Positions 52,340 to 54,755 of a stretch of DNA of 64,000 bases are shown piece by piece. The translations under genes and the position numbers were made by a program. The DNA lies in assembly GCA_965116025.1 (NCBI GenBank), contig OZ220480.1:512001-576000 (forward strand), given 5' to 3'. The DNA comes from an uncultured candidatus Porisulfidus sp. GTDB lineage: Bacteria; Pseudomonadota; Gammaproteobacteria; Poriferisulfidales; Poriferisulfidaceae. How positions within the stretch are numbered: the first letter of the stretch is position 1; each line of letters begins with the position of its first letter. Below the pieces are notes generated by a model. The model did no database searches and had not been told where the DNA came from. It saw only the letters and a program-made list of their open reading frames with translations.

Positions 52340-52549
52340 TCAGCGGTAGCGCGGTCGAAACTGTTTGGACAACCGCTTGGCGTTGCGCTTGACCGCGGCC
52401 GCGGCCTTGCGCTTGCGCACCTCGGTCGGTTTCTCGTAGCACTCGCGACGACGGGCTTCCGAAAGCACTCCCGATCGCTCGCAGGCGCGACGAAATCGAC
52501 GAATCGCAATGTCGAAAGGCTCGTCTTCCTTGACCCGAATTCCAGGCAT
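52340..52549 (-). CDS. rpsU: 30S ribosomal protein S21
   Basis: MP.I.VKE.EPFD.A.RRF.R.CE, YEKPT..RKRK.AAAVKR. Confidence 0.96.
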
Positions 52550-52736
52550 GTAACTCTGTGACAGAAAAATGGAACGCGTATTGTACATGGTCAGCGCGTC
52601 AGACTCCGAACGTTCCAGAAACGCGATAATTACGTCGGCACCACATTCCTTCCAGATCGCGCCGCCTTGATCCAGGTGCCGACTAGCAACATTTCAACTG
52701 ACGTCCGATAGGATTTCGGACGCGCGCGCCTTGGAT

Positions 52737-52765
52737 TTCCAAGTTTTCGATTTTTGTGGTATAGT
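52737..52765 (+). promoter_or_regulatory. Sigma70-like promoter of the NYN cassette (unit 1)
   Basis: TTCCAA-17 bp-TATAGT with extended TG (52757-52758); CTTGGA-TT-TCCAAG palindrome over the -35. Confidence 0.6.
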
Positions 52766-52771
52766 GCTTAT

Positions 52772-52839
52772 CAATACCCCCCCTGTGGCATTAGACTGCA
52801 GGTCGCGAGGCCCCTTCGGGGGCCTCTGCTTTTTCTCTT
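52772..52839 (+). ncRNA. Candidate structured small RNA, copy 1
   Basis: Stem CCUGUGG/CUGCAGG (52782-52802), linker UCGC, perfect GAGGCCCC-UUCG-GGGGCCUC hairpin (52807-52826), then UGCUUUUUCUCUU. Confidence 0.5.
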
Positions 52840-52941
52840 GGGCGCGCTCAAGTGCTTAATGTGTCGGCATTGTTGCCCTCAATCCCTATCGCATATCTCT
52901 AGCGAAGCAGCTAGAAACCATTTTCATGGTAGGGTAGATTT

Positions 52942-52997
52942 TCCTTGTGGCTTGGGTCACGGGTCTCGGGGCCTCTTCGGATGTCCTCTCTTTTCTT
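52942..52997 (+). ncRNA. Candidate structured small RNA, copy 2
   Basis: Preceded by TG-n-TAGGGT (52927-52935). Stem CUUGUGGC/GUCACGGG (52944-52963), linker UCUC, GGGGCCUC-UUCG-GAUGUCCU hairpin (52968-52987), then CUCUUUUCUU. Confidence 0.45.
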
Positions 52998-53011
52998 GGG
53001 GGCATGGAACG

Positions 53012-53635
53012 ATGCGCACCTTCGTCTACATCGACGGCTTAAATCTCTACTACAGAGCATTGAAGGGCACCCCTTGGAAATGGCTGGATTTGTCCACCCT
53101 GCTCACGAGAATTCTCCAGCCCCATCACGATATCCTGCGGATCAAGTACTACACAGCTCGCGTGTCGGGCACATTTGGCGATCCAACTCAGCAACAGCGC
53201 CAAAGAAAATATATCAGTGCCCTCCGGAAAACCCAACCTAAGATTGAGATATCTTTTGGGCATTTTCTCTCGCACAAGGTAAGGATGCCGCTCGCGCGGC
53301 AGGATACAGTGCCGCGCATGGTGGAAGTCATTAAGACCGAGGAAAAAGCCTCGGACGTGAATCTTGCGGTCCACCTACTCAATGACAGTTGGCTTGATGT
53401 CTACGATTGCGCGGTCGTCATAAGCAACGACAGTGACCTCGCTGAAGCGATGCGCCTCGTCGGGCACCAAAACGGGAAGCGAATCGGACTTATCACGCCA
53501 GGAAAGCACCGGCCATCCCGAAAACTCATGGAGCATGCTGACTTTTCCAGACGCATTCGAGACAACGCGTTACGACAATCCCTGTTGCCGGATCAAATAC
53601 CCGGCACGAACATCAGGAAACCTTCTTGTTGGTAG
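53012..53635 (+). CDS. NYN-domain (PIN-like, LabA/DUF88) ribonuclease
   Basis: [32 protein letters not shown] acidic catalytic motifs intact; lower GC than flanks. Confidence 0.9.
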
Positions 53636-53714
53636 GAACCCATTCGATGAAACGCCGCACTCAACTGGAAAACCAGAAATCTGGATCACTATAGGACGCA
53701 CGGAATCCACCGCC

Positions 53715-54755
53715 ATGGCTCATACCACTAGGGTGCTTGGAATCGAGACTTCCTGCGACGAGACCGGGATCGCGGTGTGGGACAGCGCGCGCGGACTGCT
53801 CGCCCACAAACTCTACAGCCAAGTCAAAACTCATCAACGGTACGGTGGGGTCGTGCCGGAACTGGCCTCGCGCGATCACGTGCGTCGCCTTCCTCAACTA
53901 ACCTTGGACGCGCTGGAGGAAGCGCGTTGCCTGCCCACGGAACTGAACGCCATCGCCTACACGGCCGGGCCGGGATTGATCGGCGCCCTAATGACCGGCT
54001 CCTCGTTCGCCTGTTCCATGGCCTACGCGCTGGACCGGCCAGCACTCGCCATACACCACATGGAGGCTCATCTGCTGGCGCCCCTGATGGACAATCCAGA
54101 CTTCTCTCCCCCTTTCGCGGCGCTGTTGGTCTCTGGAGGACATACCTTGCTGATGCGGGTCGACCAAATCGGGCGATACGCATGTCTCGGGCAAAGCATT
54201 GACGATGCCGTCGGCGAGGCGTTCGACAAGACCGCGCGCATTCTGAATCTCCCTTATCCTGGCGGTCCAGCCTTGGCCAAACTGGCGGAACGTGGCGACC
54301 CGGAACGCTTTCATTTCCCCCGCCCCATGCTAAATCGAGACGGTTGCGACCTGAGCTTCAGCGGCCTCAAGACTCATGCACGTCGATTGGTCGAGGCCCA
54401 CCCGGACGACGATCAGGCGGGAGCGGATATCGCGGCCGGATTTCAGGAAGCGGTGGTTGACGTTCTGATCGCCAAATCTCAACGCGCGCTGGAGGAAAGC
54501 GGTCTGGATCGTCTCGTGGTGGCTGGCGGCGTCGGCGCGAATCGAAGATTGCGAAGCCGACTGTCCCAGGCCCTCGAGAGCGACGGGCAACAAGCGCTTT
54601 GGCCGCCACCCGAATACTGCACGGACAACGGCGCCATGATCGCCTTCGCGGGCTCGTTGCGGCTACGCGACGCGGCGGCAATCAGTGGCCTAGAGATACT
54701 CAGCCGGGCGCGTTGGCCTTTGGAGGAGCTCGCGCCGCCATCCTGCCCTGCCTGA
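53715..54755 (+). CDS. tsaD: tRNA N6-threonylcarbamoyladenosine transferase
   Basis: [53 protein letters not shown]. Confidence 0.97.

Follow-up and report, generated by a model that had tools for sequence, protein, structure and literature searches.

The DNA analysed here is a 64-kb stretch of 64,000 nucleotides (nt) from the genome of an uncultured candidatus Porisulfidus sp. (hereafter the window), in which a low-GC cassette between rpsU and tsaD carries two copies of a short structured RNA followed by a gene for a NYN (PIN-like) ribonuclease. The initial annotation, made by reading the sequence, had described a lower-GC insert between these two genes, two diverged units and an intact NYN gene, and we found all of them at the positions that it gave. 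The features of the locus, in window coordinates, are the following.

52340-52552, minus strand: rpsU (Pfam).
52635..53690, plus strand, boundaries approximate: inserted low-GC cassette, flanked by the rpsU-proximal GCGATAAT box and tsaD (empty-site alignment with the same-genus genomes G013, G008 and G012; GC profile).
52736..52765, plus strand: promoter of RNA unit 1, TTTCCA, 18 nt, TG-extended TATAGT (consensus scan, 9/12 matches plus the TG extension).
52770..52839, plus strand: RNA unit 1, the canonical copy (covariance model R1, 60.1 bits, E 5.7e-18; terminator scan).
52927..52935, plus strand: weak extended -10-like box of unit 2, TGgTAGGGT (read from the sequence; the consensus promoter scan did not call it).
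52931..53001, plus strand: RNA unit 2, the NYN-proximal, decayed copy (covariance model R1, 21.8 bits, E 4.1e-5).
53012..53635, plus strand: NYN (PIN-like) ribonuclease gene of the HEC-09 type, 207 amino acids (aa) (Pfam, PADLOC, PHROG).
53715-54755, plus strand: tsaD (Pfam).

Unit 1 is preceded by an extended -10 box, TGgTATAGT (52757-52765), with a -35-like TTTCCA at 52736, and related loci carry a TTGA(C/T)-type -35 and a TAnAnT -10 at a distance equal to that of this promoter. The unit consists of an ACCCC 5′ flank, a first hairpin (P1, 52782-52802), a UC linker, a second, terminator hairpin (P2, 52805-52829) and a U-tract (52830-52834). Its P2 has a UUCG loop, a bulged U at 52827 and a GC clamp, with a folding energy of -20.8 kcal/mol. 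Unit 2 starts 161 nt after unit 1, with a mean column identity of 74% between the two, and ends in a U-rich tail that runs to 52997; the terminator scan did not call it. It had been claimed that both stems are kept in both copies, and for P1 of unit 2 (52944-52963, -8.0 kcal/mol) this is so, but its P2 (52968-52988) is mismatched, has lost the GC clamp and reaches only -7.0 kcal/mol.

The covariance model R1 was built mainly from other genomes, unit 1 of the window being one of its 32 seed rows. Since the two units match it with 60.1 and 21.8 bits and the next-best match in the window scores 9.9 bits, below both, the window RNA units are beyond chance. Folding of the single sequences was significant for neither unit (z of -1.7 for unit 1 and -0.1 for unit 2), so the support for the RNA comes from comparison and not from folding energy. 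Blastn found no further copies of the units in the window's own genome, which rules out a dispersed repeat element, and R1 found just the two units there. With Rfam 15, the best match in the window was sbrA, whose 20 bits fall short of its gathering score of 45 and whose terminator part alone aligned, and in five representative loci nothing fell on the motif at E <= 1. In a second strain (DNA run X2), the cassette is retained in full; over 1.5 kb there are 13 substitutions and 2 indels. None of these changes lies inside either RNA unit, a weak result because only about 1.3 would be expected there by chance.

The NYN gene starts with an ATG at 53012, 14 nt past the tail of unit 2, the spacing first noted. 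The Pfam NYN family (PF01936; 6.5e-13, 49.9 bits against a cut-off of 24.2) is the sole Pfam domain in the 207-aa protein, which also matches the PADLOC profile HEC-09 (PDLC04163; E 2.6e-42, residues 2-207 against profile positions 3-202 of 203) and PHROG 7929 (1e-60). No NCBIfam model matched it, and a profile search of PDB sequences gave a chance-level match only. It is the single NYN of this type in the 2.02-Mb window genome (G000). Residues D8, E110, K112, D115, D125, D140, D142 and W207 are invariant among 27 aligned homologues; all are present in the window NYN, which is apparently catalytically intact.

We examined whether the RNA accompanies NYN elsewhere, as the initial annotation required when it named the lack of a conserved two-hairpin motif upstream of homologues as evidence against its proposal. 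A protein search listed 3545 homologous protein clusters. Scanning one genome per species gave 80 homologous loci, with NYN homologues of 42-75% identity, from Alphaproteobacteria, Nitrospirales, Acidobacteriota, Ignavibacteria, metagenome-assembled genomes of Desulfobacterota type, Burkholderiales, Arenicellales, Planctomycetota, Actinomycetes and others. The motif is there: an R1 match lies at most 120 nt upstream of NYN in 77 of the 80 loci, one of these matches (L047) being partial at a contig end. Two of the three exceptions (L066 and L074) are without the 5′ end of the gene, and in the third (L078) NYN is split by an IS256-like insertion sequence (IS), with the RNA still before the 5′ piece. 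The 130 nt 5′ of NYN follow a near-universal order, namely a TTGA-type -35, a TAnAnT -10, the ACCCC flank, P1, GGG-YGC, a GC-rich P2 with a bulged U and a GC clamp, UGCUUUUU, a short spacer and the start codon, and the spacer often has a Shine-Dalgarno sequence. As judged by sequence comparison, the RNA is about 55-60 nt long, with its own sigma-70-type promoter and a single-stranded ACCCC-type 5′ flank. P1 has 7-9 bp with a conserved CC/GG base, the linker is 1-3 nt long, and P2 doubles as an intrinsic terminator; P2 and UGCUUUUU are conserved in 77/80 loci.

Most relatives in this set have a single RNA unit, the terminator lies between the RNA and NYN in most loci, and the median distance from the 3′ end of the R1 match to the first position of the NYN match is 8 nt. 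No main-clade NYN without the RNA was found among those with an assessable upstream region. NYN relatives on viral contigs have an R1 match at E <= 0.1 in 31 of 41 loci, and an exact-pattern scan of viral contigs for the commonest P2 sequence returned nothing. Across the 80 loci, no neighbour protein family other than NYN recurs, in agreement with the earlier statement that the cassette has no protein antitoxin.

Selection on the structure of the RNA, which had been proposed from the two window copies, is borne out by covariation. In a MAFFT alignment of 32 diverse copies, 91.5% of the cells are paired, and sliding the 3′ partners by 1-3 columns lowers this to 35-56%; 16 of the 19 pairs show compensatory changes, and none of 500 shuffles reached any of the five measures. 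The 92 R1 matches are 94.4% paired, with compensatory changes at 17/19 pairs and many G-U pairs, although this alignment was fitted to R1 and the independent MAFFT figure is the fairer one. At six or more stem positions of the 92 matches, G-U and U-G pairs are common and, since G-U pairs work on the transcribed strand only, the RNA should be made from the given strand. A reading of the units as small open reading frames (ORFs) was excluded by the stem covariation and by loop indels that are not multiples of three. In summary, the comparison indicates that the RNA is a real, conserved structured element that is genetically coupled to NYN.

NYN genes also occur on plasmids. By tblastn, NYN homologues lie on 452 PLSDB plasmid records, some as small as 3.4-4.6 kb, which include Klebsiella (207), Xanthomonas (60), Escherichia (45), Rhizobium (20), Mycobacterium (19) and Leptospira (7). 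ColE1-like plasmids of 4.5-4.6 kb from E. coli, Salmonella and Klebsiella account for 17 records whose NYN identity is 99% or more; such a plasmid is present in 10 of the 5426 complete E. coli genomes. The order on these plasmids is a set of tandem repeats with a period of 33 nt, one terminator and then NYN. The repeat, a P1-type hairpin with a C-rich 5′ flank and an A-rich linker, is present in four copies in three records and in five copies in OW968114; its first 12 nt are identical to the corresponding part of window unit 1, and the plasmid and window NYN proteins are 36% identical. A search for related loci with the E. coli plasmid NYN gave one distant locus only. In some of the E. coli plasmid records, the annotated N-terminus of the NYN coding sequence is extended over the repeat array (L139, 289-1113; L140, 259-1113), and in the window a 293-aa ORF (52754-53635) passes through the RNA units into NYN. 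These long ORFs are probably due to a wrong start call, which masks the RNA.

More distant NYN clades are accompanied by a second RNA variant, which has a CGUG loop on P1 and whose hairpin is 99% paired, with compensatory changes at 5/7 pairs (15 sequences). As a single-unit hairpin plus terminator, it occurs on Phaeobacter and Acetobacter plasmids, in an Edaphobacter genome, with the second NYN paralogues of two Paracoccaceae genomes and on several viral contigs. A Granulicella plasmid (L136) also has a P1 hairpin and a terminator ahead of NYN, with a longer and different loop. Distant Klebsiella and Xanthomonas NYN genes (28-36% identity; single examples) have hairpins of other sequences and a strong terminator before the start codon. 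On two Klebsiella plasmids (L133 and L134), the motif GCGAUUAAGUU stands once or twice in long hairpins 5′ of NYN, followed by a strong terminator, and the Klebsiella leaders (L132-L134), from the group of 207 plasmid records, may by their sequences represent a third RNA variant.

Several single loci deserve mention beside these. On a 3461-bp plasmid of E. coli / Serratia (L128), NYN and a VbhA-family antitoxin are the sole annotated genes, and the NYN leader has three or four hairpins that R1 does not recognise. A distant NYN encoded on the Cupriavidus necator plasmid pBB2 (L208, 1399-2418) carries, as a C-terminal fusion, a toxin-binding (antitoxin) domain of the Xre/MbcA/ParS type. Four Burkholderiales loci share the pair of genes that encloses NYN, and in one of these loci (L050) the pair scans as a DNA methylase and a ResIII helicase. 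Several NYN homologues are annotated as 6-hydroxy-3-succinoylpyridine monooxygenase HspA/NicB, a name that was questioned for such proteins by Matelska et al. (2017, PMC5499597). The plasmid, prophage and defence-neighbour contexts fit toxin-antitoxin (TA) or defence modules, as does the HEC-09 match of the window gene.

We then considered whether the RNA is tied to the 5′ end of the NYN transcript. On three viral contigs (L159-L161), the RNA gene is downstream of NYN on the opposite strand, with a TTGACA-type promoter and a terminator that abuts the NYN stop codon. In the Mycobacterium phage prophiGD43A-1 (L185), which has NYN as its gene 6, with the integrase on one side and the immunity repressor on the other, the RNA gene is likewise convergent and has its own promoter (47.7 bits); the convergent genes as a group score 47.7-48.9 bits with R1. 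On a further viral contig (L165), the RNA gene is upstream of NYN but divergent, again with its own promoter.

The RNA gene has also been amplified repeatedly (window x2, L054 x4, L053 x3, L033/L070 x3), and NYN never. The four tandem promoter-plus-RNA units of L054 have a period of 188 nt; in L053 and L033/L070, which have three RNA units each, the upstream units carry decayed 5′ NYN fragments. An actinomycete genome (G034) has three RNA units, two of them with just the last few NYN codons. In this genome (L084, contig 9, ~1677700-1684000), a segment of ~1.5 kb is triplicated, each copy with an RNA gene that adjoins an ImmA/IrrE-like (HExxH) ORF on the other strand, and one copy has an unannotated 172-aa ORF at the place expected for NYN.

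Elsewhere, the RNA persists where NYN is truncated or absent. In the viral loci with a truncated NYN that were examined (L180, with L181 of identical score, L182, L183 and L184), the RNA is intact and what is left of NYN behind it is a stub of 25-50 aa. In the same-genus genome G006, a single contig with 98% completeness, two arrays hold six RNA genes in all, every gene with its own promoter, and a search whose positive control passed in the window genome found no NYN there. An RNA-first scan of 150 class-level genomes gave 9 matches, of which L186 and L187 are convincing promoter-bearing orphans and 7 weaker ones resemble ordinary terminators. None of the 9 matches has NYN within its 3-kb locus, nor was one found in the L186 and L187 genomes, one of which is merely 71% complete. 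Over 13 orphan units, 95.1% of the positions are paired and 18/19 pairs are compensatory. Conversely, NYN has nonsense codons in L019, L053 (two), L065 and L069, is split by the IS in L078, carries an insertion in L079 and lies in two frames in L036, L037, L042, L075, L082 and L087, and the RNA is present in all of these. Decay therefore seems asymmetric, NYN being lost before the RNA, as would be expected of a toxin and its antidote. In summary, the convergent and divergent RNA genes, the persistent RNA-only copies, the lack of any assessable main-clade NYN without the RNA and the plasmids with a type III layout favour, at the level of sequence comparison, an RNA that is a separate, trans-acting partner of NYN over a plain leader.

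The surroundings of the window cassette were compared with those in the same genus. The GC content drops from ~0.60-0.70 around the locus to 0.50-0.55 across ~52500-53700. Since rpsU and tsaD are just ~60-147 nt apart in the same-genus genomes G012, G013 and G008, the window carries an insert of ~1.05 kb. The GCGATAAT box is conserved in these empty-site relatives, ~55 nt 5′ of tsaD, and the cassette lies between the box (52620-52635) and tsaD; direct repeats flanking the insert were looked for and none were found. In other genomes of the genus (loci L102-L106), the same gap is occupied by a DNA methylase gene in G002 and by genes for autotransporter/Calx-beta proteins of 1000-3000 aa and IS605 OrfB/TnpB genes in G003, G001, G011 and G009. 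To judge from these genomes, the rpsU-tsaD gap is an insertion hot spot within the genus; because the inserts differ, it is a variable spot and no dedicated defence island. The scan called no promoter or terminator between the NYN stop codon and tsaD (53636-53714), and essential tsaD may for this reason now rely on transcription that traverses the cassette.

Taken together, these comparisons indicate a two-gene module made up of a structured RNA of about 55-60 nt and an NYN-family endoribonuclease, and we lean towards a new type III-like family in which the RNA is the antitoxin and NYN the toxin. The interpretation first proposed gains partial support from them and is considerably strengthened. 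The RNA would bind NYN and keep the nuclease inactive, in the manner of the antitoxin RNAs of type III TA and abortive-infection systems. The most sequence-constrained part of the RNA is the junction, namely the CC/GG base of P1, the YGC linker, and the GC clamp and bulged U of P2, and this junction, together with the single-stranded C-rich 5′ flank, would be the likeliest contact site for NYN. In the common layout, NYN would be made only by read-through of P2, so that RNA exceeds protein. The initial annotation had proposed such read-through as what sets the ratio of RNA to NYN; this holds for the common layout but does not extend to every locus, since some prophages and viral contigs encode the RNA as a gene apart from NYN, convergent or divergent to it, and there the excess would come from the RNA's own strong promoter. 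Once the supply of RNA stops, through plasmid loss or a phage-induced shut-off of transcription, the RNA would decay and free NYN would cleave cellular or phage RNA. In the window, the distal unit 1 would be the dedicated RNA gene, with a strong terminator, and the proximal unit 2, with P1 kept and a leaky terminator, would serve mainly as a 5′ leader that permits NYN synthesis. The further suggestion that the RNA guides NYN gained no support, and a guide RNA was excluded, because the RNA has no variable single-stranded segment.

Several observations weigh against an RNA-antitoxin family, or against an active copy in the window. Some distant NYN homologues (L143 and L135) have an upstream ORF and no visible RNA, and a Rhizobium and a Mycolicibacterium homologue have an uncharacterised upstream ORF instead; Pfam assigned no family to the upstream ORFs of the RNA-less relatives L209 and L135. 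The toxin fold is metal-dependent and NYN/PIN-like, not that of ToxN/AbiQ, CptN or TenpN, and the NYN RNA usually comes as one unit, bounded by its own promoter and terminator, instead of as a processed repeat array; such a single-unit RNA would presumably need no processing. The orphan units were found with R1, so their intact structure is partly an effect of ascertainment, and the two-frame NYN genes are possibly assembly errors. For the RNA-only arrays that persist in a genome without NYN, an independent function of the RNA is another possible reading. Finally, the window NYN deviates at three positions that are at least 90% conserved (F10L, G113A and Q191L), and because of these substitutions and the decay of unit 2 the window copy may be attenuated. 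In the single published trial, HEC-09 cloned together with ~150 bp of upstream sequence did not protect against the coliphages used (Payne et al., bioRxiv 10.1101/2024.01.29.577857).

Of the other explanations, we regard a required cofactor or scaffold, by which the RNA would activate, stabilise or target NYN as a small ribonucleoprotein nuclease, as the one to take most seriously, though it is unlikely. The genetic coupling of RNA and NYN would be equally tight, the RNA variants track the NYN clades, the conserved junction has the look of a specific protein-binding site, and the two strains that were kept off isopropyl β-D-thiogalactopyranoside (IPTG) for apparent toxicity did not include the HEC-09 clone, which had its ~150 bp of upstream sequence (bioRxiv 10.1101/2024.01.29.577857). 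However, a cofactor should decay after loss of its enzyme, yet promoter-bearing RNA-only copies and arrays persist with intact pairing; it is the RNA that is amplified and NYN that decays first; a layout that makes far more RNA than protein suits an inhibitor better; and targeting by a guide would call for the variable unpaired segment that the RNA does not have. It is a similarly long shot that the RNA is a pseudo-substrate 'key' shared across the NYN family, with RNA-only genes and arrays acting as transferable immunity against incoming NYN cassettes, for which the six RNA genes of the NYN-less G006 and the viral-contig RNAs beside an NYN stub can be cited. If so, nuclease and RNA decoy might be in an arms race, in which case the shape of the RNA would reveal the natural target of NYN, a corollary that we hold with no greater confidence.

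A leader or attenuator that acts only in cis, throttling NYN or autoregulating it (for example, by NYN binding its own leader), seems less probable than a cofactor. It would explain why the element is on the same strand and directly upstream in 77/80 loci, and why the model ends so shortly before the NYN match (a median of 8 nt) that NYN needs read-through. But such an element should always lie in a same-strand 5′ UTR, and the RNA gene points towards NYN in L159-L161 and L185 and away from it in L165, each time with its own promoter, and promoter-bearing orphan units have no downstream gene to regulate. Nor did the alignment show a conserved antiterminator pairing, since the two halves of P2 covary freely with each other. 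We attach slightly less weight again to the idea that the family functions elsewhere and the window copy is a decaying, idle relic: unit 2 scores only 21.8 bits and has a P2 of -7.0 kcal/mol, NYN is substituted at the three conserved positions and the insertion site is variable in the genus, but the NYN ORF is full length with all invariant residues kept, unit 1 is canonical at 60.1 bits, and the X2 strain keeps the whole cassette with its RNA units unchanged (weak evidence, given the ~1.3 changes expected). That the element acts as DNA, as a recombination or transposition signal of a small mobile cassette, is very improbable. The cassette is scattered over unrelated neighbourhoods and phyla and shows tandem partial duplications, as such a signal might; against this, the G-U and U-G pairs at at least six stem positions would be mismatched in the opposite strand, the element has a conserved promoter on its 5′ side and a U-tract on its 3′ side, there is no linked integrase or transposase, and no repeats flank the window insert.

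If the RNA neutralises NYN, as we favour, the cassette would represent a new and very widespread family of RNA-antitoxin systems, and it would be, to our knowledge, the first RNA-antitoxin system with a PIN-like/NYN toxin. This would account for HEC-09 behaving as a stand-alone gene without a partner. It would also add a well-supported RNA family to the catalogues and correct the annotations that read the RNA array as an NYN N-terminus (the 293-aa window ORF, L139 and L140). The system is small (~0.8 kb), is found across plasmids and prophages, and can be tested in E. coli.

Among the known systems close to the cassette is HEC-09, the same protein family (PDLC04163) as the window NYN, which has been described as an Hma-embedded candidate defence gene and treated as a single protein (Payne et al., bioRxiv 10.1101/2024.01.29.577857). 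The main text of that preprint, as far as it was covered and leaving the supplements aside, has no match for 'non-coding', 'noncoding' or 'ncRNA'. The window gene differs in its location between rpsU and tsaD, outside any Hma or multi-gene defence system. NYN proteins form a separate group in the PIN-like superfamily, where the bacterial PF01936 members are listed with function unknown (Matelska et al. 2017, PMC5499597). A CRISPR-associated NYN of Bacteroides fragilis, linked to defence, cleaves single-stranded RNA in a Mn2+-dependent and sequence-nonspecific way (Chi and White, bioRxiv 10.1101/2024.04.08.588522); in the parts of that preprint considered here, it differs from the window NYN in being an accessory crRNA-trimming enzyme of a type III CRISPR system, and no stand-alone cassette with a dedicated hairpin RNA is described. 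Full-text literature searches, supplements excluded, revealed no described RNA partner of an NYN nuclease, which agrees with the initial annotation's statement that it knew of no NYN system with an RNA antitoxin.

In type II TA systems of the VapBC type, a PIN-domain toxin is paired with a protein antitoxin. The NYN cassette is like these in having a PIN-like RNase as the presumed toxin of a small, mobile two-part module, but the partner of NYN is an RNA and not a protein. In type III TA systems (ToxIN, CptIN and TenpIN), an RNase gene is preceded by a short structured RNA and an intrinsic terminator, and there is no protein antitoxin. The window cassette shares this order of structured RNA, terminator and RNase and the lack of a protein antitoxin: P2 and the U-tract of unit 1 were called by the terminator scan, that of unit 2 being weak, no ORF family recurs beside NYN, and the covariation and loop indels of the RNA are incompatible with coding. 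The type III-like layout first proposed thus extends to most relatives, where the terminator lies between RNA and NYN, and, as with type III systems, the modules are found on plasmids and prophages. The RNA gene can, however, be convergent or divergent to NYN, which is a further difference. A tandem array of short repeats under a single promoter is not what the window has, its two units each having a promoter-like box, and is found only in the clade of 4.5-4.6 kb plasmids. There, the true array of four to five 33-nt repeats comes near the ToxI repeat of ~36 nt. In its comparative features, the NYN cassette is hence best described as type III-like, its RNA and its presumed toxin fold both being new.

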